64,000 nucleotides of DNA. Origin: an uncultured Clostridia bacterium. Its GTDB lineage: Bacteria > Bacillota > Clostridia > TANB77 > CAG-508. The translations under genes were made by a program, and so were the position numbers. Where the stretch lies: assembly GCA_963931155.1 (NCBI GenBank), contig OZ006978.1, positions 1,498,289 through 1,562,288 on the forward strand. The letters run 5' to 3'. Of the stretch, positions 10,201 to 58,473 are shown piece after piece; position 1 is the first letter of the stretch; the number at the start of each line of letters is the position of its first letter. The notes beneath the pieces were generated by a model, which saw only the letters and a program-made list of their open reading frames with translations, searched no databases and was not told the origin of the DNA.

Positions 10201-13200
10201 ACACAAAATGGAATAACAAGTATAACAGTAAGTGCAACTCCAACAAGATACTATGATAGCTATAAATTAACAGGAATAAAATATAAAACAAAAAGTGTAG
10301 AAGAACAAACAAAAGAAATAGAAGTAGAAATACCAGTACAATTCTATAAAGAAATATATACATATGAAGATTGGCAGGGAATAGAAGAAGGAACATATCA
10401 GAATTACAGATTAATGGCAGATATAGATTTTAGTGGAAAATCAAGTATAAAAAATAATATAACAGTAAATAGACTAGAAGCTGAAAATAATTTATATACA
10501 TTAAAAAATATCACATTAGAATTTAATAAAGGAAATACAGGATTAATAAATAATGTAAAAACAAGCATAAAGAATATAGGATTTGAAAATATTACATTAA
10601 CTAATACAGGTTCTGGAAGTTATTTTGGAGTGATATCAAATAGCAATGCAGATATAGAAAACCTAAAATTTACCAATATAACCATAGATAACACAGGAGG
10701 AACTTTTGACGAAGTAGGTGTAATTGGAGGTACTACTTCGGGAAATATTAATAATGTAGAACTTAAAAATATAAATGTAAAAGGAAATACAGATGTAGGA
10801 GGATTTATAGGACAAATTAACATAGGGGTAGAAACAACAATTCAAAATATATCTGGAGATAACATAAATGTAGAAGGTAAAACAAATTATGCAGGAGGAA
10901 TAATAGGAAGACAAACAGGAACAAATATAAAAATAGAAAATATAAAAATAGAAAATTCTAATGTAAAAGGAAATGGTTATACTGGCGGTATTATTGGTGT
11001 AGTATATAATATAAGTTTAAAATATTTAGAAACTAATAACACGGAAATTTCCGGTGGCTCTTATGTAGGCGGTGTAATAGGTTTTTCTAGTATGAGTACT
11101 ATATGGTTCAGCCAAGTTAATTCGTCAAATATAAGTGGAACAGGCAATCTTATAGGCGGTGTGGTTGGACAATGTAGTAGTAGTTCTCCATATTATGTAG
11201 TTGTAAAAAATAGTAAAATTAATGCACTATCAACAAACTCAAAATATATTGGAGGTATTGCAGGAAATAATGCTTGGTGTGGAGTATATTATTATGCAGT
11301 AATTGATACAGAAATAATTAGTAATGGAACAAATGTAGGAGGAGTTACAAATAATTCAGAAGGAGAAAATGACACTAGTTCCGTAGAAGCTAAGTGGGGT
11401 TATGTAAAAAACACAGTTGTTCAAGGAAACTCAAGTGTTGGAGGAATAATTGGATACGGTAGAATGGTTGGAATTCAGGTGGTTTATGTAAATGCCGAGG
11501 TAAAAGCAAATATACATTCAGCAGGAGGACTTGTAGGATATGGAGATAATAAATATATGACAGGAGCAACTAATAGGTTAGTGGCAAATGGTTGTATGGT
11601 TATAGATAGTACTATAACAGCTCCAACAAAAGCAGGAGGATATTTTGGAGATATAGCAAAAGAGCTATATAGAACAGGAAATTATTATACTAATAATTAT
11701 ATTGAAGCAGATGTAATAAGTGAGAATAGTTCTACAGGTTCATTATTAATAGGCGGAAGACCTGATGAAAATGATTATGTACTAGCTACATATATATATA
11801 AGTATAGTACATTAAATGGAGATTATGTATATTCAACAAATGACAATATAGACAATAAACAATATTTAGTAAGAACAGATTTAGAGCAACAAAACACATA
11901 TTTAAGTAAAATAGGAATTGGAATAACATATTGGAATTATGCAAGTTTAACAGAAGGAAAATATCCTAAAATATTAGATTCATACCTATACAAACCAGAA
12001 TTACAAGAAGGAGTGGATTTACCAGTTGATCCAGAAATTTCCTCACTAAATATATTAAATGAGGAAAATGAGGACAATTTAAATTCAAATAATCAAAACA
12101 ACTTGACGGAGCAAAACGGTATAACAAGTGATAACGAAAAAGTAACAGAAGATGCAGGAGCATTACCAAGCTATACAGTATATCCTGTTTCTGTAAATGA
12201 AATAAATGTAGACTTTAGTGAAGTAGTAAATAATTATAAAGTAGAAGGAAATAATGAGCAACAAGGAGAACAAACAAGTAGTGCAGATACAAGAACATAC
12301 TTCACATACTACGTAAACGGAGAAGAAAAAGAAACGGTAGAATTAAGCAATAGCACAAAACAAACATATACATTTAAATATAATTTTAGAGATACATTAG
12401 AAATAAAGCTTACAAGAGAAGATAATGTAGATTTAAATAATGTGGTGGAAAATACTCAAACAAATTTAACATCAGACGAAAGTGCAAGTACAAAAATTAA
12501 TATGGAAACAAACGCAGAAATAGGCACAAAAACAAACATACACACAGAAATAATAATAATCAAACCAGAAGATGTAAGAAGTGAAGCAAGTTTAGTTGGT
12601 AGTATCAATGCATATTTATTAGGCACGAACTTATACATAAATGGAGAATTACAACAAGGAGAATATGTAAATGTATATGAAGGATTAGCTCTAAAAAGTG
12701 ATGGTACAGTAATAAATATAGCAACAAATGAAAATGTAGAACAAAATGTGGAAACAGTATTAGAAGAAAATGCGAAACCTTTAGAAACGCACAACTACAA
12801 GGACTACAGAATAAACACATATGGAACTTACAGCACAGTAAATGGAAATATAAAACTTCAAATATACAATGTAAGAAGCGGTAAGTTATCAGCTTTATCA
12901 AACACTATGGATATAAAAATAGGAAATAACATAACAGACAACTACAACGACAAAGAATATCAAACAATATTAGCAACAGAAGGAAACTTAGTGGACTTAA
13001 AAGAAATGCTAAAATATCCAGAGAATTTCCTAACAAGAAATATAAAACAAATAGCACAAAATACAGATGAAGAAAAAACAGAAATGATAGTATTATACAA
13101 TACTGGAAAAGTAATAGTATTTAACTATGTAACAGGAGAAGTAATTTATGAAAACAACGAAAAAGCAGATTCGGGATTAGTAGATTACTTAGAAGGAAGT

Positions 13201-15595: not shown

Positions 15596-18500
15596 ATGCT
15601 AATAATACTAGTAGTAATATATTATATATTTTTAAGATATTCACCAGAACAAATAATAACATATAGTGGATATGCAATAGAAGGAAAAGAGATGGTGGAG
15701 AACTTAAAGAGTAGTGATAAGTCCAAGTTAGCACCATACTTGGGCTTAATTGCTGTGCAAGAGAATGATTTGATATATAAAAAATTAAATTCATATTACA
15801 TAGGAGAAGATGATAAAAAAGAGATAGATATAAATTATCCAATATACATAAATGAAGGAAATGCCTTACTTAATTTAGGAGAGAACACAAAACTAATAAC
15901 AGTAAATTATGAAGAAGTAGAAGGATATCCAGACTTCATGATGGCAGATGGAGTAATGTATAATGGAGTTGACATAACAAGAGCAGATGAAAACAAGTAT
16001 CTGTTCCTAAAAAGTGAAGATGAAATATACACAAATGTAGAACCAATAACCATAACAACAGCAAATGGAGAGTATACAATAAAAGAGTTTAGTAACATAT
16101 ATTTTGCAGAAGACCATATAGCATATTATGAAATGGAAGGTATGCAAGGAAAAAACGAGCGAAATGAAAATAATGAAAAAAATAACGGTACAGAAGATAG
16201 AACAAATAGTGAAGTAAATAATAATGCAGAAAGTAAACAAAAAGAAAATCAAGGGAATAATAAGAACGATAATTTAAAAGACAGCTATTTACAATACAAA
16301 GAAATAAAGCCAATAGACCCAGATTCAAAGACAAAGATAAATGGAGAAACAATAACATATAAAACATTGTTGGAGAGATTAGACATTTTACAAACAGAAG
16401 ATAACAACGCAAACAATAACAACGAAGAAAATGCAACAAACGAAACAAAAGAAGATGATGTAAAAAATACGACAAACGAAGAGAATACAACCACAGGAGA
16501 AACAACAGAGCAAAACAATAATATAAGCAATAATCAAAATACAACAAATACGGAAAATAACAATAGCAACAAGGATGAAGACGAATGGCAGGAAGGAATG
16601 TGGGAAAAACCAGAAGTAAGCTGTACAGATTTTGAAAGCGATGTGTATACAATAAGCACAAATCTATCAGTAAGAGATAGAGCAAATGTCATTTCAAGAG
16701 GAATTACATTTGAACTATACTTAGATGGAAGATTAAATAGAAGAGTATTTGCAACAAAAGTAGGAAAAGTAGAGATATCAAACTTACAACCAAGTTCAGA
16801 ATATGAGATAAAAGGAATATTCTACTATACAGATGAAAACGGAGTAGAACAACAAGAAGAATTTTACAATGGAAAAGTAACAACAGAATCAATAGACACA
16901 TTAGGAACAATAGATTTTAGTTTTCAAAATGGAGAAATATATTCAAATAAAATAGAATTAAAGAACTTAAAAATAAACAACAATATAGACGAAGAAGTAA
17001 TAAAAGGAATATCAAGGTTGCAAATAGAGATAGGAGATATAGCATATAGATTAAGCAATAACCAAGTAAATGATATAAAAGCAGGAAAAGAAATAACATA
17101 CCAAACAAGTGAAAGTCTAACATCAAATAGTAAAATAAAATACAAAATCACAGCATTTGATAGATTTGGAAATGAGCTAAAAGAGAAGAACAATGAAGGA
17201 GAGACAATAACATCAAAACAAATGCCAACAGCAAGTATAAGACCAACAAAACAAGATGTAACAGAAATAGAGATAGAAGTAGTACTAAATAATAAAGATA
17301 ATGTAAAACTAGAAAACTATAGATATGAAATAACAAACCCAAGTGGAGATATAGTAAAGAGTGGAGCATTAGGCAAAAACGATAATGGCACAGATGGTGG
17401 AAACTCCAATGAAGGGGAAAACATAAATGACGGACACAAAGAAACATTAAAATTCAACGACCTAGACCCAAATGGATATTATCAAATAGTAATCTATGGA
17501 GACTACGACTTAGAAGATGGAACAGGAATAAAAGAAAATGCAGAACTAGGAAGAGGAAGTTTTGTAACAAGACCACTAGCATCATTAGGATATATGCAAG
17601 TAAAAATAGATGATAAAGAAATAACACAAAATAGTATGAATCTTGGAATAAGCATAGATGAAAACCAAACAGATGCAAGACTTTTAGCAATACTAGATAA
17701 GGTAGAAGTAGTAATATATGATGAAGGTAAAAATTTAGATAACGGTGGGCAACAAGGAGAAGAAGAACAAAGTAAAGAAACCGAAGTACAATGCCACACC
17801 TTCACACAAGAACAAGTTTCACAACTAAAAACATCAGAAGAGGTAGAGTTAGATTTACAACAACTAAACTCAAACACAAAATACAGAATAGATGTAATAA
17901 CAACAGTAAGACAAGGAACGGTAGAAGAAGTAGTAGAAGACAAGCAAAACATAGAACAATTAATAACACTAAAAATGCCAGCAGAAGTACAAATAAAGAA
18001 CCAATTTGTAATAGGTACAATGATAGACCTGGATATGAGAATAGAAGATATAGATAATGCAGTATTAACAAACAAAGTAAGAATAGAAGTAAGAGATAAA
18101 GACAATAAATTAATAGACCTAAGTGAAATGCAAACAAATGCAGAATATGAAAGAAAAACATATGAAGACCTAACACCAAACGAAGAATATAGAATAATAG
18201 TATATGCACCACAATACAACATAGGAAGTACAGATGAAACATACGAAGCAGATTACATCTTAAAAGAAATAAAAATAGTAACAGAAACAGGAATAAGTGG
18301 AAGATTAGACTTAATAGGACTAGAAAAAACACCAACAGGAAAGAACCTAATAGATGTAAGCTCAAAAGTAAATTGGTATGAAAAGTGTTTTAATACAAAT
18401 AATAAATATGGTTTAATCTATAATGCAGAAACAAAAATAGTTACATTAGGTGGAACTACATGGCCGAATCATTTAACTTATTATGATTTAAGCAAATACT

Positions 18501-21500
18501 TAGGACAAGAAGTAACAATAAGTTTTAAAGCAAAATCTGAAAATGGAAAAATTTTAAATATAATAGAAAAAAAGAATGATGATTTTAATAACACAGATTT
18601 AACAACATATTATTGGATAAAGGACTTAAATAAAGAATGGCAAGAATATAGTTATACAACTATACTCAAAACAACAGGATATATTGGATTTTATGTAGAT
18701 GCTAATACATTAGTAGAAATACAAGACTTACAAATAGAACTAAGCGATAAAAAAACAGACTATGAAGAATTCAAGTATGACTACAATGCAATTGTAGCAG
18801 TAACGTTAAATGATGAAAGAGATGAAATAGCAACAAATGATTATTATATACGAATATACAAGAACGACGAACAAATTCAAGAAATAAGATATGAAGAAAT
18901 AGGAGAAGACAACAAAGTAGAAAATGCAGAAAAAACATACAACATAGAACCAAATGCAAATTATAAAATAGAGCTTTTAGTAAAAATTGGAGAACGATTC
19001 TATGAGTTAGATTCACAAGAGTTTTCAACAGAAGGTTCAAGCGAATTGAAAGGAATTCAGAACAAAAATGATTTCTTAAAAATACAACCATATGGACAAT
19101 ATATTGTATTAGACAACATAGATTTAACAAATAATAGTGGTATTATGTATCGATTTGGAAATACTAATTTAGAATTTGAGGGAAAGATAGATTTCAATGG
19201 AAAGACTCTATTTAAAGACTGGAGTGGGGACAATACTGTACCAGTTATTTATCAACTTGGAGATAATGGAACATTGGAAAATGCAGTACTTGATGTAAAA
19301 ATGAATAATAAAAATTCTTCCGCTTTTGCTACTACATCTGGATTAGTTAGTAGAAATTATGGAAATATACGAAACATGCAAATTAATTTAACAGAATCAA
19401 ATTATAATTCAAATAATGATGCGTGGATTTTTAGTTATGAAAACCATGGAATAATAGAAAACTTTGTAGTAAATTTTCAAGTGCCATTTTATTTATCCGG
19501 TCTTGGGGGGATTTTCGGTTATCAAAATTATGGTATAATAAAAAATGGATATATTTATGGCGAAAATATACAAAACATAAATAATACTAATTCTCCTTCA
19601 AAGGCAGCGGAAATTGTTGCTAACAATGCGGGAAATGGAGAAATAGAAAATATTTATACATTAATAAGCATAGATAACGTATATGAAAAATCAGGGTATG
19701 CGAAAAATATCGTATACAGCAATGTTAATAATGCAACAGTACATAATGTGTATTCCGTAAAAATAGGAAAGAATACTAGTTTGACAAACGGACCCAATAT
19801 TTATAATGGTTCTAAAAAAGTTTATAATAGTTACTATTTTACAGATGAGACTTTTACAAATTCTTCTGAAACAAAAGGTAATAAATTATCATTATGGGAT
19901 GCAGAATTCCAAAATCAACTAATAAATAGTGATAAAGTGTTTGTAGTAGATGAACTAGTAAATGAAGGATATTATCCTCAAATAAAAATGCCGGATTGTA
20001 TGCCAGTACAAGAATATATAGAATTGCCAGAAGTGGCTGATAGCGACCTTCCAGATATATTATCAACAAAGGTACTAGAACAAGGAACAAATACAGTAAA
20101 AGTAGAATTTAGTGTGAACAACCCATCAGCAGAAACAATAGATAATATACAAATAGAAAATATAAATGTAGATATTCTTTCACAAGAATATAGTAATGGA
20201 AAAAGTACAGTAATAGCAGAATTAAATAATCCTACTATTTGTGTATCAAGTTATGATGTATTAAGTATAAGTACAAAAGGTGCATTTGGAAGCTCATATA
20301 CAAGACCATATGAAAAAGGAGAAAGAGTAATAAATGTAGATTTATATAAAGAGGTATGGAATATAAATGACTGGAAAAGTATAAACGATTCTCCAACTGA
20401 AAACTATATGCTTATGGAAGACTTAGACTTTGTAAATGAAGGGAACACTATAAGACTAGAAGCTGTACATGGTATAATAAATGGCAATGACCATACAATA
20501 TCGAATATAACATTGAAGGATATATCACTTATATTAAATTGTTATGGAACATTAGAAAATTTATATATTTATAATTTCAAACAAGAGACATTATCAAGTA
20601 GAGGACTTATTACATATGCGAACCCTAATGCACTAATAGATAATGTTCATGTTACAAATAGTTCAATAATTGTAACAGGTTCTGGACGATTTGGAGGATT
20701 AATAAGTAGTACATCAGGCTGTATTATAAAAAATAGTTCTATTACAGATTTGAATATAAATGTAACTGCAGAACAAGATGAAATGTATATTGGAGGACTT
20801 GTTGGCTATATTTATACCACAAGCATAGAAAATTGCTATGTTCAAGGGCTAAACATAAAAGACTTAAAAGGAGTAAATGCAGGAATTGGAGGGCTTGTTG
20901 GAACGGGAACTGATGCAAATAGTATAATAAATTGTTATGCAGAAGGAAAAATAGATTCGAATAATTTAAATGTAGGAGGATTAATAGGTTCTACTACTAG
21001 TATTAATATTGAAAACTGTTACTCTAAAGTAAATATATCAACTACAAATAGTAATATAGGAGGTATAATAGGAAGTTACTCACTAACTGATTTAAGAACT
21101 ATTACAAACAATATAAGCATAGGAAACATATATACTACATCAGGATTGGATGCTTTGAATAGAATTGTTGGAAATAATGGAGAATTAACAACTAACAATT
21201 ATGCATACGAAAAACAATTATTAAATGGGTATGTAAGAGCGGATGAAAAAGGTGCTACCTTATTAAATAAAGAAGAAATATTAAACTTAAACTTAGGAAC
21301 AAAATATAATTATGAAGGAAAAACAGAAGGAATATTGCCTAAATTATATAACACAGAAGGTACTAAAATATTACCTAATCAAAAAGATATACTAATAGAA
21401 GATAATTCTTTATCAGGTGCAACGGGCTTGGAGATAGAAAGCATAGAAGCTACAAAGCCAAACACAACTGAAGCAGAAATATCAATTAGAATAAAAAATC

Positions 21501-22375
21501 CAGATGGAATAGATATTACAGGATTAGAAATAGAAGATATGGAAGTCACAGAAATAACAAGAAATGTAACACAAAAAGGGATGACAAATATTACAGTAAG
21601 CGCAGTTCCAACAAGATATTATGATACATATAAGCTTATTGGAATTAAATATAAAACTGGGGGTATACAAGAAGAACAAACAAAAGATGTAGAGGCAGAA
21701 GTAAAAGTGCAATTCTATAAGGAAATATATACATATGAAGATTGGCAGTCGATAGAAGACGGAACTTATCAAAATTACAGATTAATGGCAGACATAGATT
21801 TTAATGGCAGAACTAATATAAAGAATAATATAACAGTTAATAGATTAGAAGCTGAAAATAATATTTATACATTAAAAAATATTAACATATCATTTAATAA
21901 AGCTAATACGGGTTTAATAAACAATGTAAAAACAAGTATTAAAAATATAGGATTTGAAAATATTACATTAACAAACACAACGGGTACAGGAAATTATTTT
22001 GGAGTGATAGCAAGTAATAATGGAGAAGTAGAAAGTTTAAAGTTTACCAATATAACAATAAATGCATCTGGTATAAATTATTTAGGTGCTATAGGAGTAA
22101 TGAATTCCGGAAATATTGATAATATAGAAATTAACCATATGACCATAAATGGAAAAGGACAAATAGGAGGACTTTTGGGAAATATTGTTGTATCCGGTGA
22201 TGAACATATAAAAAATGTACAAGGAAATAACATAAATATAACAGGTACAGATATTTATATAGGTGGAATAATTGGTAAACAGACCAGCACCAGACTTGTA
22301 ATAGAAAATATACGGAATAAAAGATTCAAATATAACTGGAAAATCAGATTATGTAGGTGGAATTATAGGAAGTAA
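15596..22375 (+). CDS. Giant surface protein paralog C, N-terminal 2259-aa segment. The tracked ATG lies inside the signal-anchor helix and the 3' end is truncated by a frameshift.
   Basis: Collinear with paralog B residues ~46-2290. The homologous MRK start codon is at 15501 in another frame. The reading frame is lost near 22310. Confidence 0.8.
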   Translation: MLIILVVIYYIFLRYSPEQIITYSGYAIEGKEMVENLKSSDKSKLAPYLGLIAVQENDLIYKKLNSYYIGEDDKKEIDINYPIYINEGNALLNLGENTKLITVNYEEVEGYPDFMMADGVMYNGVDITRADENKYLFLKSEDEIYTNVEPITITTANGEYTIKEFSNIYFAEDHIAYYEMEGMQGKNERNENNEKNNGTEDRTNSEVNNNAESKQKENQGNNKNDNLKDSYLQYKEIKPIDPDSKTKINGETITYKTLLERLDILQTEDNNANNNNEENATNETKEDDVKNTTNEENTTTGETTEQNNNISNNQNTTNTENNNSNKDEDEWQEGMWEKPEVSCTDFESDVYTISTNLSVRDRANVISRGITFELYLDGRLNRRVFATKVGKVEISNLQPSSEYEIKGIFYYTDENGVEQQEEFYNGKVTTESIDTLGTIDFSFQNGEIYSNKIELKNLKINNNIDEEVIKGISRLQIEIGDIAYRLSNNQVNDIKAGKEITYQTSESLTSNSKIKYKITAFDRFGNELKEKNNEGETITSKQMPTASIRPTKQDVTEIEIEVVLNNKDNVKLENYRYEITNPSGDIVKSGALGKNDNGTDGGNSNEGENINDGHKETLKFNDLDPNGYYQIVIYGDYDLEDGTGIKENAELGRGSFVTRPLASLGYMQVKIDDKEITQNSMNLGISIDENQTDARLLAILDKVEVVIYDEGKNLDNGGQQGEEEQSKETEVQCHTFTQEQVSQLKTSEEVELDLQQLNSNTKYRIDVITTVRQGTVEEVVEDKQNIEQLITLKMPAEVQIKNQFVIGTMIDLDMRIEDIDNAVLTNKVRIEVRDKDNKLIDLSEMQTNAEYERKTYEDLTPNEEYRIIVYAPQYNIGSTDETYEADYILKEIKIVTETGISGRLDLIGLEKTPTGKNLIDVSSKVNWYEKCFNTNNKYGLIYNAETKIVTLGGTTWPNHLTYYDLSKYLGQEVTISFKAKSENGKILNIIEKKNDDFNNTDLTTYYWIKDLNKEWQEYSYTTILKTTGYIGFYVDANTLVEIQDLQIELSDKKTDYEEFKYDYNAIVAVTLNDERDEIATNDYYIRIYKNDEQIQEIRYEEIGEDNKVENAEKTYNIEPNANYKIELLVKIGERFYELDSQEFSTEGSSELKGIQNKNDFLKIQPYGQYIVLDNIDLTNNSGIMYRFGNTNLEFEGKIDFNGKTLFKDWSGDNTVPVIYQLGDNGTLENAVLDVKMNNKNSSAFATTSGLVSRNYGNIRNMQINLTESNYNSNNDAWIFSYENHGIIENFVVNFQVPFYLSGLGGIFGYQNYGIIKNGYIYGENIQNINNTNSPSKAAEIVANNAGNGEIENIYTLISIDNVYEKSGYAKNIVYSNVNNATVHNVYSVKIGKNTSLTNGPNIYNGSKKVYNSYYFTDETFTNSSETKGNKLSLWDAEFQNQLINSDKVFVVDELVNEGYYPQIKMPDCMPVQEYIELPEVADSDLPDILSTKVLEQGTNTVKVEFSVNNPSAETIDNIQIENINVDILSQEYSNGKSTVIAELNNPTICVSSYDVLSISTKGAFGSSYTRPYEKGERVINVDLYKEVWNINDWKSINDSPTENYMLMEDLDFVNEGNTIRLEAVHGIINGNDHTISNITLKDISLILNCYGTLENLYIYNFKQETLSSRGLITYANPNALIDNVHVTNSSIIVTGSGRFGGLISSTSGCIIKNSSITDLNINVTAEQDEMYIGGLVGYIYTTSIENCYVQGLNIKDLKGVNAGIGGLVGTGTDANSIINCYAEGKIDSNNLNVGGLIGSTTSINIENCYSKVNISTTNSNIGGIIGSYSLTDLRTITNNISIGNIYTTSGLDALNRIVGNNGELTTNNYAYEKQLLNGYVRADEKGATLLNKEEILNLNLGTKYNYEGKTEGILPKLYNTEGTKILPNQKDILIEDNSLSGATGLEIESIEATKPNTTEAEISIRIKNPDGIDITGLEIEDMEVTEITRNVTQKGMTNITVSAVPTRYYDTYKLIGIKYKTGGIQEEQTKDVEAEVKVQFYKEIYTYEDWQSIEDGTYQNYRLMADIDFNGRTNIKNNITVNRLEAENNIYTLKNINISFNKANTGLINNVKTSIKNIGFENITLTNTTGTGNYFGVIASNNGEVESLKFTNITINASGINYLGAIGVMNSGNIDNIEINHMTINGKGQIGGLLGNIVVSGDEHIKNVQGNNINITGTDIYIGGIIGKQTSTRLVIENIRNKRFKYNWKIRLCRWNYRK

Positions 22376-50261: not shown

Positions 50262-50462
50262 ATGGAAAATATTAGTCTTAATACAAAATTAGAAATAGCT
50301 GTAGAAGTTATTGCTGCCCAAATTGCAAAAACTTCAAATGAAGGCTATACAATAAAGGATAAAAAAATGCAGGAGCTTATTGAGGAAAGAAATCAAATGT
50401 ATAAAGGAAATGAAAATATAATTAATAAAATAATAAAAAAATATGGAAAAGTAGGTGAGTAA
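50262..50462 (+). CDS. Small protein upstream of the zeta toxin (putative epsilon-like antitoxin)
   Basis: 66 aa, helical. Its stop is 2 nt before the zeta-family gene. The function is assigned from position only. Confidence 0.45.
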   Translation: MENISLNTKLEIAVEVIAAQIAKTSNEGYTIKDKKMQELIEERNQMYKGNENIINKIIKKYGKVGE

Positions 50463-50464
50463 TA

Positions 50465-51331
50465 TTGGAAGATAGAATTAAATCACTTGAAGAAGCATTC
50501 GAATATTATAAACTTACACAGGAAGAGCATGAACAAATTGGAAAACGCATAAATGAAATTATGATGTTTGGAAAAAAGCCTGAAGAAAACCCAATAGCAG
50601 TTATAGACATTGCTCCTCCTGGCTCTGGAAAAACAGGTTTAAATGGATATGTTTTAAGACAATTTCCAAATGGCAATTTAATAATTGTTAATAATGATGA
50701 ATTTAAACCATTTCATCCAAAAGCAGATGAGATAGCACAAAAATATCCGGAATATTATATTAAAGTTACAAATGAAGAAAGTAAACGTTGGACTGATGAA
50801 CTTGTAGATACTGCAATTGAAGGAAAATACAATCTTTTATATGAAGGAACAGGAAGAAAAATAACAATTTTTCAAAGAATGATAGAGCAAATGAGAAAGC
50901 AAGGTTATAAAATAATAGTAAGAGCTATGGCTGTAAATGAACTTAATTGTTTAATGTCCATAGTGGAAAGATATGAAGGACAAGTTGCTGAAAAAGGATG
51001 GGGAAGGCTTGTATCTGCAAAAACTTTCTATAAAGCTTATGATGAGGAAATGCTAAATACATTAAATACATTTGAAGCGACAGATTTGGCAGATGTTGTT
51101 GAGGTTTATGTAAGAGGAGATAATCCAGCAGAGCCAATTAGGATATATGGTGATAAAAGTAGAGAATACAAAGATGCGAGAACAGCAGTTATAGAAGGTA
51201 GAAATCGAGATAGAAGAAGAGCAATACAATATTATGAACAAGTATTTAGTAAAGCAATGAAAAATTATAGAAACACAGAAGAAGAACAAGAACTAATTGA
51301 GAAAATAGAAGGCTTATACAGAGAAAGATAA
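50465..51331 (+). CDS. Zeta-toxin family kinase
   Basis: Walker A APPGSGKTGL, followed by NNDEFKPFHP as in the Zeta_toxin family. TTG start. Confidence 0.75.
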   Translation: MEDRIKSLEEAFEYYKLTQEEHEQIGKRINEIMMFGKKPEENPIAVIDIAPPGSGKTGLNGYVLRQFPNGNLIIVNNDEFKPFHPKADEIAQKYPEYYIKVTNEESKRWTDELVDTAIEGKYNLLYEGTGRKITIFQRMIEQMRKQGYKIIVRAMAVNELNCLMSIVERYEGQVAEKGWGRLVSAKTFYKAYDEEMLNTLNTFEATDLADVVEVYVRGDNPAEPIRIYGDKSREYKDARTAVIEGRNRDRRRAIQYYEQVFSKAMKNYRNTEEEQELIEKIEGLYRER

Positions 51332-51420: not shown

Positions 51421-51828
51421 TTAATTACAATTCATATTATTCATATAAAATTTCTTTTCTGCAAGTTTGTCTTGTACACCACGAAGAGCTTCACCAAATC
51501 TTTGGAAGTGAACTATTTCTCTTTGACGTAAGAATTTAAGTGGATCTAATACATCTGGATCATCTCTACATAAATCAATTAACTTTTCGTAGGTAGCTCG
51601 TGCTTTTTGTTCGGCAGAAAGATCCTCTTGAAGATTTGCAATAGGGTCTCCCTTACAAGCTATATATGCTGCAGTCCAAGGGGTTCCTGCTGCACTTTGA
51701 GGATATACATCTACACCATGATCTGTATAATATGCTCCTAGTCCAGCTTTTTCTATTTCTTCTATAGATGCTCCATCTGTTAATTGATGAACTATAGTTC
51801 CAACCATTTCTAAATGGGCAAGTTCTTC
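51421..51828 (-). pseudogene. cotJC: cotJC (Mn-catalase-family spore coat protein), C-terminal segment
   Basis: (G)TEELAHLEMVGTIVHQL...GDPIANLQEDLSAEQKARATYEKL...LKFLRQREIVHFQRFGEAL is collinear with residues ~62-189 of CotJC. There is no start codon at the conserved N-terminus. Confidence 0.9.
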
Positions 51829-51928
51829 TGTACCATAATGTTGTCAATTTAAAAATTTATAGTTATTGGCTGTAAAAATAAATAGAGTTCACGAAGTGAA
51901 TTAAAGTACACTTAGTGAACTTTTATAC

Positions 51929-52948
51929 TTATTTATTATTATTTTCTTTTAAATATCTTTGATACATTTCGTCCATACTAGAAATATATTGCATATCTTG
52001 TTTTACTCTGAATTTTTCATACTCTTTCTCTGCTTTTTCAATAGCTTGCTTATGTGAAATTTTCCCTGAATCCTTTAATATTTCTTTCTTTCTAAATTTT
52101 AAAAGATTATCTGTTTCATTTATCCAGTCTTTCATTGTCATAACTTGATTTTCTTCTGCCATTGATTCTGCATAATCTAAAAAGAAATTTGTTAAATTAT
52201 TTAGCTTTTTTAATTCATCTTCATTTAAATAGTTTTTCGCTATACTAACATCATATTTATATATCATTCCATCTGGAGCTTCTTTCCAAGTAGTTAGTCC
52301 CATATTTTCTTTTTCTGCATTTACTCTATTATAAATTAGTTCTGCCGCAGTATGACCCGTTATTGCATAATGTAATTTATTTTGAACTATTTTGAAAAAT
52401 GTATATGCTTCTTCTGATTTTTTATCATAGTCAATAGATGTTGCTATAAATAAGTCTGTTATTTTTTGATAAGCCATTCTTTCACTTGTACGAATTACTT
52501 TAATTCTTTCTAATAACTCGTCAAAATATTGCCTATTTACTTTGCCACCTTTTAAGAATCTATCATCATCTAAAGCAAAACCTTTTACCATATATTCTTT
52601 TATTATTTTGTTTGCCCATTGCCTAAATTTTACTGCTTTTTTTGAGTTTACTCTATATCCAATTGATATAATCATATCTAAATTATAGTATTTCGTTTTA
52701 TATTTATGTCCATTTTTTCCAATAGTCTCCAAAATGGAGAATGTTGAATCTTCTTCTAATTCCTTTTGTTCATAGATATTTGCTATATGTTTATAAATTG
52801 CTTTATCATTAACATCAAATAATTCTGCAATAGCTTGTGCATTTAGCCAAACATCTTCATTTTGTAAAATTACTTCTATATTAGTATTTCCTTCTTCATT
52901 CGTATAAAATACAATATTATTTTTATTTCCAATTAGTTTGTTGCTCAT
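51929..52948 (-). CDS. RhuM-family protein
   Basis: The sequence ...VWLNAQAIAELFDVNDKAIYKHI...YYNLDMIISIGYRVNSKKAVKFRQWANKIIKEY is characteristic of the RhuM family. Confidence 0.8.
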   Translation of the reverse strand: MSNKLIGNKNNIVFYTNEEGNTNIEVILQNEDVWLNAQAIAELFDVNDKAIYKHIANIYEQKELEEDSTFSILETIGKNGHKYKTKYYNLDMIISIGYRVNSKKAVKFRQWANKIIKEYMVKGFALDDDRFLKGGKVNRQYFDELLERIKVIRTSERMAYQKITDLFIATSIDYDKKSEEAYTFFKIVQNKLHYAITGHTAAELIYNRVNAEKENMGLTTWKEAPDGMIYKYDVSIAKNYLNEDELKKLNNLTNFFLDYAESMAEENQVMTMKDWINETDNLLKFRKKEILKDSGKISHKQAIEKAEKEYEKFRVKQDMQYISSMDEMYQRYLKENNNK

Positions 52949-53372
52949 AATAAACCAACTCCGTTTCTTGTTTGTTATATATTATCAAACAATTGTTCTT
53001 TTGTCAATTGATTTATTATATTTTTATCAATAGTTTTTATCAATACACTAAGTGAACTTTTACATTAAAAATAGTAAATTATAAATTCATTTAGTGAACT
53101 TACATACTCTAACAAGCATTTTTTAGTAGTTCATTTGGTGAATTTTTACATCAAATTTACTTAAAATTTTTGTTCTTTTAATAACTCTAGGAGGCTTGTC
53201 CTTCTATGTATATAGGTAATGTGTTAAGCATTACTATCCTGCCTTTAGTTTCACTTGTCCTTCTTGATATTTATAAACCAATATTCGACTTTTATTGACT
53301 TTTTATCTTAAAAATAATATAATTAGCAAAGCAACGAATAAATTGCTAATTAATAATTAAGGAGAGTTTAAT

Positions 53373-54461
53373 ATGTTGTCTTATCAACTTTTAGAATATT
53401 ATAAATTAGTTTTACAAGAATTAAATAAATTTAAAGAAAGTATGAATTTTTTATTAGAATGGGAAAATGATTATAGTAAAACTATTGTAACTATTTTACC
53501 AAAAATTCTTTCTTCTCGTACTTCAACTTCTGGAAATGATGTACATTATATCATAAGGGATGGAAAAATAATCTCAGATTTTGATGCCATAATGAAAAAT
53601 TTTAAAAATAATTTTAAGTTTGTTGATACTTTAACCATTTATGGAAGTATAAAACAAAATATAGGACAATACAAAGAAATAAATAATATAGAAAAAGATT
53701 ATATAGATATTTTCTTTAATGAAACAGATTCATTATTTGCTGTTTATCAAGATTTTATACAAAATGATAATTTAAAAGAAAAAGCAGTAGCATTTGGACA
53801 AGAAGTTTGTAAATACAAAAATACATTTAATACATGTCAACATACTTATCAAAATCTTATAAACCTTTTAACAATTAATAAAAATATGATTAATGAAAAT
53901 TCAAATTATAAGGAAATTACAATTCAGCTCTTAAATGTTGAATATAATCTACAGGAATTCTCAGAAAAATTAAATAATATAAATGAGGTTTATACAGAAA
54001 TAGGAAATCTACTTCTAAAAGACGGTAATAGCATTGAATTTGAAAAATTAAGAATAGTTAAAATTGAGTCAGGTTCACTATTATCTGATATAATTGGTAA
54101 CACAGCTATTATTGGAGTTTTAGCACTACTTTTGACCAAAACAATTCAATGGGCTTTTAATAAATTTACTACTGAAGGAAAGATTGGCAGACATACAGAA
54201 CTTTCTAAATGCTTAAAGGAAGAAATTAATTTAGGAGAAGAAATGAAAAAATATGGATATGATATAAGTGACTCAAAACAAACTATAGAAAAAACATATA
54301 ATGCTATAAGTAAAAATCTTTTAGATTTAGCTAGAAGTAGTGCGAAAATCAAAGTTGATGATGAGGTATATTCTATTAAAGATAATCTATCTATTAGCTA
54401 TTTACAAGAATCTACAAAATTATATTTGCAAGAAAGTAATGATAAAAAAGATATGGAATAA
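53373..54461 (+). CDS. Hypothetical protein (362 aa) with a central TM helix; element cargo
   Basis: RBS AAGGAGAG. Helical N-terminal half, TM segment IIGNTAIIGVLALLLTKTI. No family recognised. Confidence 0.6.
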   Translation: MLSYQLLEYYKLVLQELNKFKESMNFLLEWENDYSKTIVTILPKILSSRTSTSGNDVHYIIRDGKIISDFDAIMKNFKNNFKFVDTLTIYGSIKQNIGQYKEINNIEKDYIDIFFNETDSLFAVYQDFIQNDNLKEKAVAFGQEVCKYKNTFNTCQHTYQNLINLLTINKNMINENSNYKEITIQLLNVEYNLQEFSEKLNNINEVYTEIGNLLLKDGNSIEFEKLRIVKIESGSLLSDIIGNTAIIGVLALLLTKTIQWAFNKFTTEGKIGRHTELSKCLKEEINLGEEMKKYGYDISDSKQTIEKTYNAISKNLLDLARSSAKIKVDDEVYSIKDNLSISYLQESTKLYLQESNDKKDME

Positions 54462-54538
54462 AAACTAAGCTCTCTGCTAAGAGAGCTTTTTAATTAGATT
54501 ATATTAAAACCACTTCCGTTTTAAAAGAAATTCGTTTT

Positions 54539-55090
54539 CTAAAGATAACTTACTATATCTTCGAATGCATCATATCCACTTTCACTATTAATATGTCCAC
54601 CATTTGGTATTATAATTTGTTCTGTAGCAATTGTATCTGCAAACTCTTTTTCAACTTCATATTTTACATATGGGTCATTATCTGAATAAAAACAAATTAT
54701 TTCATCAACATACTGTTTTACATCTTTCAAATTATCAAAGTACATTGATTCATTGACATTATCATATTCTTCATTTATTCCTAAATAATTATTAAATCCA
54801 CATACAGATATTAATTTTTTAATCTTTATTTTGTTTTCAGTTAAAAATTTTGAAACGAAAACTGGTGCTATACTGTGAGCAATAATAGTTGTGTTCTCAT
54901 TTATTAGTCCTAAATCTAAATAATATTTTAGTAATTTACTCCAATTTTCATAATTTTGATATCCTACTCCTATTGAAAATTGAGGTACATAGCATTGTTT
55001 ACCATCATCTTCAATAAAATCATGTAACCAACCAAACCAATTTTCAAATGGACTTCCAAATGAACCATGTATTATAAAATAATTTTCCAT
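54539..55090 (-). CDS. Alpha/beta hydrolase, YdeN/RBBP9-like serine hydrolase
   Basis: FIIHGSFGSPFENWFGWL..., nucleophile elbow AHSIA, ...GGHIN. 183 aa. Confidence 0.65.
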   Translation of the reverse strand: MENYFIIHGSFGSPFENWFGWLHDFIEDDGKQCYVPQFSIGVGYQNYENWSKLLKYYLDLGLINENTTIIAHSIAPVFVSKFLTENKIKIKKLISVCGFNNYLGINEEYDNVNESMYFDNLKDVKQYVDEIICFYSDNDPYVKYEVEKEFADTIATEQIIIPNGGHINSESGYDAFEDIVSYL

Positions 55091-55306
55091 AAACTTCCAC
55101 TCCTTATAACTTTTTTAGAAATATTTATATCTCTTTTTTACACCTAAAATATATCATAAAATCCAGTAATTTACAACTTAGAACAGATATTAGTATCCAA
55201 TATTTCTCTAATTCCTATTAACAATAATATGAAAGTAAATTTAATTTGATATTATTTTTATAATAGGTTAGATTTTCTAAATAGAATCATGGGAAATAAA
55301 AAGGAA

Positions 55307-55335
55307 TTGATTTTATAAATCACACATCATATAAT
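55307..55335 (+). promoter_or_regulatory. Near-consensus sigma-A-type promoter inside the element
   Basis: TTGATT, a 17-nt spacer, then TATAAT. Confidence 0.5.
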
Positions 55336-55359
55336 GTTACTATAGAAAATATGAATTTA

Positions 55360-55390
55360 CTCAAGACAGCTTGTCTTGGGTATTTTTTTA
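55360..55390 (+). terminator. Intrinsic terminator ~20 nt downstream of that promoter
   Basis: CTCAAGACA-gct-TGTCTTGGG followed by TATTTTTTTAT. Confidence 0.65.
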
Positions 55391-55424
55391 TGTTTTTCTC
55401 ATAAATTTTAGAGAGGCGATTTAT

Positions 55425-55562
55425 ATGATGTTAGAAGAATATACTATTGAAAATACTAAAGTAAAATTTTATGATGATTACATTGTAGAAAGTGTAACTA
55501 CTCAAAAAGAATATATAGACAATATTATAATTAATTTGATAAATAAATCCTCTTTATTGTAA
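55425..55562 (+). CDS. Small hypothetical protein (45 aa)
   Basis: ATG preceded by GAGAGG at 8-nt spacing. The tracked TTG 55371 start lies inside the terminator. Confidence 0.35.
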   Translation: MMLEEYTIENTKVKFYDDYIVESVTTQKEYIDNIIINLINKSSLL

Positions 55563-55625
55563 TTTGTACTGTTTTCATATATACTATCTGCAAGTTAAAG
55601 ACAAATTACAAGGAAAGGAGGAACT

Positions 55626-57188
55626 GTGCTAAGTCAGGGCACATATGCAATATATTTAAGAAAATCAAGAGAAGATATTGAAGCGGAAAAATATGGTGAG
55701 GGTGAAACTTTAGCAAGACATGAAAAAATTCTAACTACTTTAGCTAAAAAAAGAAAACTACATATTTCAAAAATTTATAGAGAAGTTGTAAGTGGCGAAA
55801 CAATTAGTGAAAGAAAAGAAATGCAAAAACTACTTAGAGATGTTGAAAATGAAAAATGGACAGGTGTTTTAGTTGTTGAGGTAGAAAGACTTGCTCGTGG
55901 AGACACCGCCGACCAAGGTAGAGTTTCAAAAGCATTTAAATATTCTCATACAAAGATAATTACTCCTGTTAAAACATATGACCCAGATAATGAATTTGAT
56001 GAAGAATATTTCGAGTTTGGCTTGTTTATGTCTAGGAGAGAATACAAGACTATAAATAGACGTTTACAAAGAGGCCGTGAACTTTCCGTATCAGAAGGTA
56101 AATTTGTTGGAAATATTGCTCCTTTTGGTTATGATAGAATAAAACTAAAAAATTCAAAAGGCTATACCTTATCTATAAATCAAGATGAAGCACCTATTGT
56201 TAAAGAAATCTTTAGATTATATGCTTTTGAAAATACCTCTATAAATTCAGTTGCAAAACAATTAAATAAACTAAATTTAAAACCTAGAATTGCAAATGAG
56301 TGGTCTATTTCTTCTGTTAAAGATATTCTCTCTAACCCTACCTATATTGGTAAAATTGTATGGAATAGAAGAAAGCAAAAAAAGAAAACAAAAAATGGAC
56401 ATCTTATTATTAGTAGACCTCGCAATCAAGATTATTTAATTTATGACGGATTGCATGAGCCTATTATTGATAATAAGACTTGGGAATTCGTACAAGAAAA
56501 AAGAAAGCAAAATACTCCAAAAGTAAAACATAATAACGCTATTCAAAATCCATTAGTTGGTTTAGTATTTTGTGAAAAATGTGGTAAACCTATGCAAAGG
56601 CGACCATATACCAAAGATGACAAGCCTGCTACTCTTATGTGTTCTAATTCTAAATGTGATAATATAAGCTCTAAACTTTATATTGTAGAAGATAAAATCA
56701 TCGAGGCTTTAAAAATATGGCTTGAAAATTATAAAGTAGATTATTCAAGAAAAAATAATCTAAACTCTGATAATAACAAAATAATAGAAAAGTCTGTTAG
56801 CACGACTAAAAAAGAATTAGAAAAAGAAAATGCTAAACTTAATAAAATATATGAATTTTTAGAAAATGGAATATATAACAATGACGAATTTATAAAACGT
56901 TCTAAAGCAATAAAAGACAATATTCAATGTTTAGAAAGTAAGTTAAAAGAATACAATTCTATATTACAAAAAAATCTAGAAATACAAAATCAAAAAGAAA
57001 TTATAATACCAAAGCTAGAAAATATTATAGATTTATATTATAATTTAGAAACAGCTGAAGATAAAAATATTTTATTAAAAAGTATAATTAGCAAAGTTAC
57101 TTATTTAAAAACAGAAAAGGCTATAAAAAAGGATTCTGACCCAACCAACTTTGAGTTACATATTTTCCCTAAAATAGCTAAACTATAA
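55626..57188 (+). CDS. Large serine recombinase (resolvase catalytic domain, recombinase domain, zinc ribbon, coiled coil)
   Basis: YAIYLRKSREDIE (catalytic Ser context), VVEVERLARG, CEKCGKPM...CSNSKCDN Zn ribbon, 520 aa. RBS AAGGAGG. Confidence 0.9.
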   Translation: MLSQGTYAIYLRKSREDIEAEKYGEGETLARHEKILTTLAKKRKLHISKIYREVVSGETISERKEMQKLLRDVENEKWTGVLVVEVERLARGDTADQGRVSKAFKYSHTKIITPVKTYDPDNEFDEEYFEFGLFMSRREYKTINRRLQRGRELSVSEGKFVGNIAPFGYDRIKLKNSKGYTLSINQDEAPIVKEIFRLYAFENTSINSVAKQLNKLNLKPRIANEWSISSVKDILSNPTYIGKIVWNRRKQKKKTKNGHLIISRPRNQDYLIYDGLHEPIIDNKTWEFVQEKRKQNTPKVKHNNAIQNPLVGLVFCEKCGKPMQRRPYTKDDKPATLMCSNSKCDNISSKLYIVEDKIIEALKIWLENYKVDYSRKNNLNSDNNKIIEKSVSTTKKELEKENAKLNKIYEFLENGIYNNDEFIKRSKAIKDNIQCLESKLKEYNSILQKNLEIQNQKEIIIPKLENIIDLYYNLETAEDKNILLKSIISKVTYLKTEKAIKKDSDPTNFELHIFPKIAKL

Positions 57189-57428
57189 ATGGAGGTGAAT
57201 TTAGAAATGCTTAAAAGTGAAGAAATTATAATATTAAAAATATTAAATAATATTAGAGATAATAATTTCGTTACTATAGAAGAATTAAAAGATTCCTATA
57301 AAAATGAATATGATAAAATTATAGTAGCACTATTTAAATCTGATTATATTACAGATAAAACAGTACATTTAACAGATACAGGCATATCATATTTAGAACA
57401 ATTAGAAAAGAAAAACAAACAAAATTAA
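57189..57428 (+). CDS. Small (79 aa) protein translationally coupled to the recombinase (wHTH-like)
   Basis: Its ATG immediately follows the recombinase TAA. The EEIIILKILNN...FVTIEELK pattern suggests a winged helix. Confidence 0.5.
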   Translation: MEVNLEMLKSEEIIILKILNNIRDNNFVTIEELKDSYKNEYDKIIVALFKSDYITDKTVHLTDTGISYLEQLEKKNKQN

Positions 57429-57503
57429 ATTGTACATTTACAGTCAATAGCTAAGATTGTAATCCCTGTCTTTAGCTATTGACAACATCGTGGTACACAT
57501 TCT

Positions 57504-57695
57504 TCAGTTCCGTATGTCATTTAATATGGCTTTTGATTTTTGATCAGGCATTCCGAATTTTTGAGATAAATATCTAAGTGAAGCAGCAAGTTCTCCATCT
57601 GGACCACCATATTGAGATATTATAAACTTAGCAAGTTTTGGATTAGGACATTTTATATTTATAGGGTATTGTAATACTTTATTATAAGTCCACAT
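57504..57695 (-). pseudogene. cotJC: cotJC, N-terminal segment (61 conserved codons, then a premature stop)
   Basis: MWTYNKVLQYPINIKCPNPKLAKFIISQYGGPDGELAASLRYLSQKFGMPD...LNDI matches the CotJC/Mn-catalase N-terminus. It directly follows cotJB. Confidence 0.9.
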
Positions 57696-58111
57696 TAAAA
57701 ATCACTCCTTTCCCATGGCCATGGTTCTTCTAACCATCTCCACTTATTGCATGGATAATAAATATCAAGTGGCCCAAATATTTTTTGATATTTATCTTTT
57801 AATACTTTAAGCTCATTTGTATATTCTCTATGCAAACAAAGAGCTTTCCTATCTGTTGGATGGGTATCTAAATATTCGGCAATATCTACAACAGCAAAAT
57901 TTAAGCACTTTATTTGTTTCATCATATCTTGTCTTACTTTATTTCTATGTTGCATACATTCTGAATCGTCGTCACATTCACAGCAATTCATGTCGTCCAT
58001 TAACTGTGATGCTGTATTATATCCAAATGCAGCATTTATTCCTTGAGGCATATAGCTACAATCATTTTCGTCATTATAGCACATACAGTTTTTTTCATCA
58101 TTATTATCCAT
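57695..58111 (-). CDS. cotJB: Spore coat protein CotJB
   Basis: FAVVDIAEYLDTHPTD...KYQKIFGPL...WLEEPWPWE signature. Confidence 0.9.
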   Translation of the reverse strand: MDNNDEKNCMCYNDENDCSYMPQGINAAFGYNTASQLMDDMNCCECDDDSECMQHRNKVRQDMMKQIKCLNFAVVDIAEYLDTHPTDRKALCLHREYTNELKVLKDKYQKIFGPLDIYYPCNKWRWLEEPWPWERSDF

Positions 58112-58473
58112 TATTCATTACACCCCTCTCCAATTTCATTTCTTTTTTTCAAATAATTAATAAATTGCATACTTTGACATGGTTCATATGGGCTAACTAA
58201 TTCTGGAAAAATTGTTCCATTTTTTAATCCACAGCATGGGGTAAATGTCTTATCTAGTTTTTGGATAGGAACATAACTTTGTGCAAGCATTGGATTGTTT
58301 GGAAATACGTTATATTCTTCATCGAAACCACACTTGCAATTTTCTTTTTTAATAGAACAATTATTACCACACTTGCAATTTATATCTGCATCATTAGTAT
58401 AATCATCGCATACATCTTCTAGAGATTTATTATTAGAATTCATGCAACAAACTCCTCTGAATCTATTATACAT
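58111..58473 (-). CDS. cotJA: Spore coat-associated protein CotJA
   Basis: LAQSYVPIQKLDKTFTP...GLKNGTIFPELVSPY signature. RBS GGAGG 7 nt upstream. Confidence 0.85.
   Translation of the reverse strand: MYNRFRGVCCMNSNNKSLEDVCDDYTNDADINCKCGNNCSIKKENCKCGFDEEYNVFPNNPMLAQSYVPIQKLDKTFTPCCGLKNGTIFPELVSPYEPCQSMQFINYLKKRNEIGEGCNE

Follow-up and report, generated by a model that had tools for sequence, protein, structure and literature searches.

A horizontally spreading family of large serine recombinase elements occupies a conserved site in the coat protein gene cotJC of gut Clostridia

In the genome of an uncultured gut bacterium of the Clostridia, known from metagenomes only (GTDB lineage TANB77, CAG-508), cotJC of the cotJA-cotJB-cotJC operon is interrupted by an insert which is a site-specific integrative element, possessing a large serine recombinase and attP-like ends. 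The stretch of DNA analyzed, hereafter the window, comprises 64,000 nucleotides (nt) of contig OZ006978.1 from assembly GCA_963931155.1 (positions 1,498,289 to 1,562,288 of the forward strand); coordinates without a label refer to this window, and L-numbers (L001 etc.) are labels of retrieved contigs or loci. The target of the recombinase is a site of ~40-50 bp in the cotJC codons for ...NDIGTEELAHLE..., the metal-ligand helix of this Mn-catalase-type coat protein, and recombination takes place within a shared hexanucleotide, TTCTTC. Comparison of related loci indicates that the element belongs to a family which is often gained and lost and which spreads horizontally rather than persisting as a fixed relic. 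For developmental excision of these elements, our analysis leaves the chances about even.

The first-pass annotation of this DNA, made from the letters alone, had described cotJC as divided between two minus-strand pieces that follow cotJA and cotJB, with a 520-aa large serine recombinase near the junction and attP-like ends. Open reading frames (ORFs) and Pfam matches bear out this arrangement (Table 1), and the insert is confirmed as a site-specific integrative element. The terminal 20-nt inverted repeats reported there are indeed identical at 18 of 20 positions (51829-51848 versus 57478-57497), and a copy of TTCTTC is found at each junction. When inverted repeats were sought within 30-50 nt of both split points, none of 300 shuffles gave a repeat equally good at both. 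The predicted circular junction, attP, is ~48 bp long and has the pattern ATTGACAACATCGTGGTACACATTCTTCTGTACCATAATGTTGTCAAT. The element has a G+C content of 21-27%, compared to ~30% in its flanks. Another inverted repeat of 13-14 bp, GTCAATAGCTAAG...CTTTAGCTATTGAC, is located at 57443-57483, where it abuts and overlaps the outer part of the right att arm, and its motif TGTCAATAGCTAAAG is conserved across the element family; this repeat may serve as an accessory site for binding or may terminate transcripts that run in from cotJ.

Table 1. Positions of the element, its genes and att sites in the window, and of further recombinase target sites in cotJ operons of relatives.
Feature	Position	Strand	Remarks
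cotJC 3' part (EELAHLEM... up to stop)	51421..51828	-	first in-frame start while the element is in place: internal ATG, 51807
attL	51805..51850		host arm, core TTCTTC (51823-51828), element arm TGTACCATAATGTTGTCAAT (51829-51848)
Intervening element	51829..57499		excision loses 5,677 bp, one core copy counted
RhuM/Bro-N family cargo protein	51929..52948	-	Pfam PF13310, E 2e-101; matches candidate anti-phage system PDC-S05 (PADLOC, E 5e-132)
362-aa cargo protein	53373..54461	+	no significant Pfam, PHROG or PADLOC match
Serine hydrolase cargo (alpha/beta fold)	54539..55090	-	Pfam PF06821, E 2.4e-16
Sigma-70-type promoter-like site TTGATT-17 nt-TATAAT	55307..55335	+	conserved in most family members
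Terminator-like hairpin, 11 pairs, followed by seven T	55358..55389	+	between promoter-like site and small ORF; loop varies
Box TCATAAATTTTA	55399..55410	+	conserved; starts 26 nt upstream of the ATG of the small ORF
45-aa acidic ORF	55425..55562	+	all 42 complete elements pair it with the recombinase
Large serine recombinase, 520 aa	55626..57188	+	Pfam Resolvase PF00239, Recombinase PF07508, Zn_ribbon_recom PF13408; PHROG 95 integrase, E 2e-99
79-aa ORF, 3' of recombinase	57189..57428	+	73 aa from start 57207, as in gene calls; not conserved in the family
attR	57476..57525		element arm ATTGACAACATCGTGGTACA (57478-57497), spacer CA, core TTCTTC (57500-57505), host arm
cotJC 5' part, 63-aa ORF	57504..57695	-	residues 1-61 canonical CotJC, then R-N-stop in the 0 frame; same ORF in occupied and empty alleles
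Extra base, C on coding strand (AUA-C-GGA)	57512	-	12 nt upstream of crossover; site 57506-57518
cotJB	57695..58111	-	Pfam CotJB, E 3.8e-24
cotJA	58111..58473	-	Pfam CotJA, E 1.8e-14
Further target, cotJC ...DHG|V..., ~residue 100, core CATGG	L051 (5338-8597), L053 (1903-5701)		also L023, L025, L046, L060
Further target, cotJC ...AAE|QKA..., ~residue 136, core GAAC	L028 (1100-6939)
Further target, cotJB C-terminus ...EEPW|PWE...	L023 (12188-17538)		also L024, L025, L032, L033, L057

Public assemblies were queried with the exact 63-aa ORF formed by the 5' part of cotJC and then, independently, with the exact CotJB protein. Empty and occupied alleles coexist in the species of the window: the element is present in contigs L001-L003, L007, L009, L010, L098-L100, and L102 and absent from eight others (L008, L011, L013-L016, L101, and L103). 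These empty contigs read ...AATGA[C/T]ATACGGAACTGAAGAACTTGCCCATTTAGAAATGG, i.e., both flanks joined at one core copy, with no target duplication beyond the core. Since the element-free contigs cross the predicted joint exactly, both pieces belong to one gene and the element ends are exact, which disposes of the alternative that the pieces derive from two paralogues. The empty site had been predicted to read GACAT(A)GGAACT; the position of the joint proves correct, and the exact sequence does not, as an extra base had been left out of the prediction.

The family was surveyed in the clusters of a protein collection and in GTDB contigs representing one genome per species. Relatives of the recombinase make up more than 120 clusters at 85-96% identity in the former, and in the latter 206 stretches encode a relative, corresponding to at least 206 species-level genomes. 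The best 80 of these 206 stretches, examined as loci, encode recombinases 79-96% identical to that of the window, and all stem from metagenome-assembled genomes (MAGs) of uncultured Clostridia that inhabit the gut of mouse, chicken, rabbit, or human; at 78 of the 80 loci the recombinase adjoins or sits in pieces of cotJC. Where a contig contains both sides, the order is that of the window, i.e., cotJC residues 62 to end, element, cotJC residues 1-65, cotJB, and cotJA. All readable junctions, from 42 complete elements and 16 metagenome contigs, are situated at the GTEE codons, and the cotJC pieces flanking complete elements are readable as well (72-98% identity in tblastn), some C-terminal parts being shortened by further insertions. 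Complete elements range from 3.2 to 11.1 kb, and the only genes universal among them are those for the recombinase and for a small ORF of 45-47 aa; the cargo varies between members.

Both att arms are conserved in the 42 complete elements. The right end of the family reads GAAGAA-TGNGTACCATGATGTTGTCAATAGCTAAAGACA, its arm being conserved as TGTCAATAG...GTACC, and the left end reads TTGACA[A/T]CATCATGG[A/T]ACNGAAGAA. As some left junctions read AAAGAA or TACGAA, the obligatory identity is narrowed to GAA, which holds the geometric center of the 48-bp attP. From this we infer that the crossover dinucleotide is probably the central TC of the plus strand (GA on the coding strand).

Relatedness of the recombinases does not follow that of their hosts. 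Over 1,830 locus pairs, the identity between recombinases is uncorrelated with the identity between host proteins (Spearman -0.04 for CotJB and 0.01 for CotJA), whereas CotJB and CotJA identities correlate with each other at 0.70. The elements are therefore mobile, and their vertical inheritance is rejected. L019 encodes a recombinase with 96% identity to that of the window but a CotJB with 59% identity, and L009 harbors a 3.9-kb element variant with a 93%-identical recombinase next to CotJA, CotJB, and CotJC identical to those of the window. At the identical position, the near relative L012 (CotJB 95%, CotJA 78% identity) carries a more distant element, the recombinase of which is 48-69% identical over two segments and ~55% overall; ORFs with Sigma70_r4 and HTH_16 domains are encoded in this element. 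The first-pass annotation had framed the insert as skin-like, and in one detail this framing does not hold: the family is not a fixed, domesticated remnant as is skin of Bacillus subtilis but spreads horizontally.

The recombinase aligns over its full length with SprA/YokA of SPbeta (PDB 9dxh, E 1e-49), YLRKSRED facing YLRRSRQD of SprA. Its catalytic resolvase domain, which holds the serine nucleophile, is N-terminal and is accompanied by recombinase and zinc-ribbon domains. It is ~41% identical to the integrases of phage PhiS63, which integrates into sigK, and of Clostridium tetani phages; the nearest recombinases in the phage collection, with 48% identity, are those of one faecal phage and of Paenibacillus phage phiIBB_P123.

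Upstream of the recombinase, a compact module is conserved. In most elements the small ORF is preceded, in this order, by TTGATT-17 nt-TATAAT, a short leader, a stable hairpin and its run of seven T, the box TCATAAATTTTA, and a ribosome-binding site. The 95-nt leader 55336-55430, which contains the hairpin, has a folding z of -3.7. In four elements a different, unrelated hairpin with a T-run takes the place of the usual one, so that a terminator at this position seems to be kept. The promoter-like site followed ~20 nt later by a hairpin and T-run (55307-55410) looks like a short terminated transcript or an attenuator; Rfam searches with the element and with the whole window, including the stretch 55307-55410, gave no match. 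The small ORF ends ~60 nt upstream of the recombinase gene and evolves as coding sequence, variation at its third codon positions being twice that at the other two, with only synonymous change in many codons. Its predicted fold consists of three strands and a helix (pLDDT 82). No relatives are found in Pfam, PHROGs, or the sequences of the PDB, and Foldseek gives no meaningful match with an AlphaFold model. In L012, a 34%-identical counterpart is situated upstream of the divergent recombinase. The 45-aa protein is a candidate recombination directionality factor or regulator. The 79-aa ORF on the other side of the recombinase was also considered as directionality factor and rejected, given its lack of conservation.

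The GTEE codons are not the only target in the operon. Some relatives possess three further target sites in cotJB or cotJC (Table 1), each gap holding its own large serine recombinase; these recombinases are ~24% identical to that of the window and 30-39% identical to each other. Two loci, L023 and L025, contain three different recombinase elements in a single cotJ operon. In the families at the end of cotJB and at residue 100 of CotJC, a small ORF is located just upstream of the recombinase as well, and in the cotJB-end family a hairpin with T-run is followed by a TTCATAAAC box.

The explanation which we consider best, and as a whole neither more nor less credible than its negation, is that the site-specific element, which recombines at the GTEE codons, would do so via the central dinucleotide TC (GA on the coding strand) and that its excision (attL x attR) would need the recombinase together with the 45-aa protein as directionality factor. 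The mother cell, which needs cotJ during sporulation, would excise the element, and the forespore copy would stay integrated; loss of the element would cost the mother cell nothing, because its chromosome is not inherited. In the species of the window, excision would restore the normal cotJC allele, which itself would need a +1 recoding event or would work as two polypeptides. That cotJ is a mother-cell (sigma-E) operon is established for B. subtilis only and is assumed for the host of the element. The explanation as a whole draws on the exact ends and empty sites, the split point shared across the family, the variant attL cores, the readable cotJC pieces, and the universal small ORF, to which small ORFs upstream of two unrelated recombinase families of the operon correspond in position. 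Developmental excision is suggested by the homology of the recombinase to SprA and its likeness to the integrase of PhiS63, by the repeated targeting of the cotJ operon, by the terminator before the module, which suggests a tight off state, and by precedents in which excision is restricted to the mother cell under a small directionality factor, i.e., skin of Clostridioides difficile (PMC5025042), SPbeta (PMC4191935, PMC5499854), and gin (PMC5595907).

Several observations weigh against developmental excision. Of the promoter-like elements, only the one of the sigma-70 type is well conserved, and a terminator comes after it. A strong TCATAWWATGTA box is common to host cotJA promoters. The TCATAAA box of the element (the TCATAAATTTTA site) resembles the -10 box of host cotJA only weakly; its score is 5.9, which 3% of random windows also reach, as against a median of 15.9 in hosts, and the box is missing in four elements. 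A sigma-E promoter at this box is therefore not claimed. Frequent gain and loss, evident from three element variants and empty sites in one species and from the lack of correlation between recombinase and host relatedness, means that the intact cotJC halves may merely reflect recent insertion and are no evidence of continued use. As cotJ mutants of B. subtilis show mild phenotypes, permanent disruption may be tolerated. The attP circular junction has no match in IMG/VR viral contigs or in a metagenome collection, in which the attR control gives 16 matches, a weak negative since assemblies rarely capture rare circles.

In an alternative to which we assign somewhat less than an even chance, the family would consist of mobile elements that use cotJC as a safe harbor and have no developmental role. 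Carriers would then lack functional CotJC, excision would be sporadic and serve transfer, and cotJC would be targeted because the site is extremely conserved, which provides a broad host range, and because the gene is dispensable. The decoupling of recombinases from their hosts and the presence of empty sites and three element variants within one species agree with such a lifestyle. However, the experimentally studied recombinase elements in mother-cell sporulation genes all excise during sporulation. The accumulation of different recombinase elements in the same operon would be expected for a gene that is already broken, but four recombinase families, each specific for conserved codons of the cotJ operon, are easier to understand if insertion is free of cost. 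Similarly, the conserved sigma-70-like promoter and the lack of a significant sporulation promoter in the element favor the safe harbor, whereas tight conditional control, as opposed to constitutive activity, is suggested by the terminator that immediately precedes small ORF and recombinase in two unrelated families.

Much less probable is that the element is a remnant or satellite of a temperate phage integrating in cotJC, comparable to skin as a decayed prophage. Although its recombinase finds its nearest counterparts of the phage collection among phage integrases (the 48% and ~41% relatives mentioned above), phage structural, packaging, or lysis genes are lacking among the genes of the element, for which PHROGs matches the integrase only. 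Moreover, the elements are small, and neither the right-end (attR) nor the attP pattern has a match in the 2.9 million viral contigs of IMG/VR.

The allele that excision would restore in the species of the window is unusual. Excision had been expected to rebuild a single cotJC ORF, which is not the case: the joined coding strand, GAC ATA C GGA ACT GAA GAA, comprises two frames, the 5' part running on as ...NDIRN-stop (CGG AAC TGA) and the GTEE... continuation being in the +1 frame. Gene calls in empty alleles show the 63-aa ORF and a 140-aa ORF (MTYGTEEL...) overlapping it by 17 nt. Every informative contig of the CotJB look-up, which has no bias toward frameshifted alleles, contains the extra base. 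Since it is present in every empty allele seen, it is neither a sequencing error nor caused by the element; the former is rejected also because more than 20 independent contigs carry it, including empty alleles found via CotJB. No frameshift separates the GTEE codons from the 5' part at the 85 other junctions or empty sites that could be read. An identical extra C occupies the equivalent position (L123:243-265, GAT ATT C GGA ACT GAA) in the divergent species L123, whose N-terminal 61 CotJC residues are, by our own count, ~79% identical to those of the window.

If the extra base is removed, the canonical ...NDIGTEELAHLE... (...NDIGTEEL...) is restored with no gap, and no further stop or indel exists in either cotJC part. 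Comparing two frameshifted sublineages, 24-26 synonymous versus 1-3 non-synonymous codon differences are counted in the 3' part and 2-6 versus 0 in the 5' part. Codon comparison thus indicates that both parts are under strong purifying selection and that the gene is not decaying. That the frameshift has left cotJC of this species a dead gene, which would make insertion and excision functionally irrelevant here, fits the presence of separate 63-aa and 140-aa ORFs even in empty alleles and is nevertheless the least probable of the readings, very unlikely in view of these synonymous changes, the absence of other lesions, the gapless restoration of the motif, and the identical extra C of L123.

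Through the extra base, the 0 frame acquires CGG, a rare codon (0.58 per 1000 in the long ORFs of the window), as compared to GGA in the +1 frame (38.6 per 1000), and a stop comes two codons after the extra-base site. Frameshifted cotJC is a candidate either for +1 ribosomal frameshifting at a hungry codon or for two polypeptides made by termination-reinitiation, both readings being compatible with the sequence. Under either of them, excision would restore the normal functional allele of the species, not "an intact ORF." The closest intact CotJC proteins in a collection of 5.8 billion proteins are 93-94% identical; the nearest of them, P0002 (93% identity), was considered as an intact allele of the species and rejected, its genomic context being unrelated. 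In L012 (region 9232-10224), the 183-nt cotJC 5' part including the frameshift is identical to that of the window at the nucleotide level, despite the lower identities of CotJA and CotJB, which suggests that the cotJC region has recombined or been transferred between lineages, elements perhaps moving along with it. In the low-coverage human-gut contig L113, the frame of the cotJC 5' part upstream of the element is disrupted near residue 30 (L113:4600-4790), which could be a sequencing error or a truly decaying copy.

A bolder proposal, which we put forward tentatively and regard as probably too far-reaching, extends developmental excision to the whole operon. In many uncultured gut Clostridia the cotJ operon would be an "assembly-required" locus, interrupted by up to three unrelated elements at four sites in cotJB and cotJC, each of which would be excised in the mother cell. 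The elements would be mobile carriers of defence-type cargo that use a dead-end chromosome free of cost. For the species of the window, the proposal adds that the rebuilt cotJC would require a conserved +1 recoding event, located 12 nt from the crossover at AUA-CGG-A, in which CGG is a very rare, "hungry" codon.

The class of element and the use of cotJC as a target are already known, and what is new is a widespread clostridial family of that class, not a new class. Intervening elements (skin, SPbeta, vfbin, vrin, gin, and yin) have been described in sigK, spsM, spoVFB, spoVR, gerE, and yabG. Transposons of the Tn4451/Tn5397 type are small clostridial elements with a single large serine recombinase (TnpX, TndX) and a GA crossover dinucleotide. 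TnpX and TndX need no directionality factor, are looser in their choice of target, and travel with mobilization or conjugation genes. By description only, the cotJC elements resemble them in having one large serine recombinase and a GA crossover, here inferred for the coding strand, and differ from them in that no relaxase or conjugation domain is found by Pfam among the element ORFs. SPbeta is a 134-kb functional phage. In spsM of B. subtilis it behaves as an active mobile element that is excised developmentally, by SprA and SprB, to rebuild a spore-envelope gene (PMC4191935, PMC5499854). In contrast to the recombinase, homologous to SprA over its full length, the 45-aa ORF has no sequence or fold match in the PDB, which contains SprB (YotN) in a fusion chain (PDB 9dxh, 9dxd).

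A parallel for the small ORF exists in C. difficile, where the skin recombinase CD1231 is expressed constitutively from a sigma-A promoter, whereas excision is limited to the mother cell by CD1234, an acidic protein of 72 aa that has no relatives in databases (Serrano et al., 2016, PMC5025042). Both systems are clostridial large serine recombinase elements with a small acidic orphan protein. However, skin of C. difficile is prophage-like, targets sigK, and provides CD1234 with its own sigE/SpoIIID promoter. The 45-aa ORF, by contrast, is located between a terminator and the recombinase gene that it immediately precedes, and the search for a sigE promoter gave no clear candidate. The gin element in gerE of Bacillus cereus ATCC 10987 is 28.6 kb in size and encodes three recombinases, and its excision needs GirC and the small GirX (Abe et al., 2017, PMC5595907). 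Similarly to the cotJC elements, gin is a non-phage large serine recombinase element interrupting a small mother-cell sporulation gene, with a short overlapping core at both junctions. In contrast to gin of the Bacilli and its three recombinases, members of the cotJC family are elements of 3-11 kb from gut Clostridia with one recombinase and a 45-aa orphan partner ORF.

An interruption of cotJC in Laceyella sacchari FBKL4.010, a member of the Bacilli, is noted in one line of a preprint (Galperin et al., 2022). A list of frequent integration targets in the Bacilli, comprising cotJC, gerE, yaaH, and yhbH, is credited in a preprint to Abe et al. (2013). The L. sacchari element occupies 2604290-2612416 of CP025943.1; as the N-terminal cotJC piece is 231 nt long there, cotJC of L. 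sacchari may be split at another position. In the literature searched, the clostridial cotJC family, its module, its mobility, and its frameshift are not described.

If our explanation is true, developmentally excised elements, so far described from few Bacilli in culture and from Clostridia that are pathogens, would include a widespread family that is actively moving among gut commensals, which would provide a test case for the use of the disposable mother-cell genome by mobile elements. The compact module, consisting of 45-aa ORF and recombinase, an attP of ~48 bp, and an attB in a highly conserved coding motif, would be a natural source of sets of recombinase, att sites, and directionality factor for genome engineering. 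Independently of this, cotJC, frameshifted yet maintained by selection, stands on its own as a candidate case of programmed +1 frameshifting or of a Mn-catalase-type protein naturally made in two pieces.

With regard to the cargo, the RhuM/Bro-N protein occurs in 15 of the 42 complete elements. At four loci (L035:6055-6125, L046:11604-11674, L049:12018-12088, and L068:7073-7143), right arm and core abut sequence other than the cotJC 5' part; in L049 and L068 the neighboring sequence resembles the arm of another att site, so that tandem or nested elements may be present. Two recombinase relatives, L089 (81% identical) and L082 (84% identical), show no cotJ sequence in the available DNA, which for L082 comprises only 120 bases after the recombinase. 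The MAG of L089 also contains L038, a locus with a copy inserted in cotJC; L089 may represent a second copy with a different target. A gene for a zeta-toxin family protein (288 aa), preceded immediately by a 66-aa ORF, occupies 50262-51331, directly beyond the 3' end of cotJC and convergent with it on the opposite strand; this pair is kept in empty and occupied alleles alike and is probably a chromosomal toxin-antitoxin pair. Elsewhere in the window, two very long plus-strand ORFs are encoded at 4228-13740 (3,170 aa) and 15596-22375 (2,259 aa).

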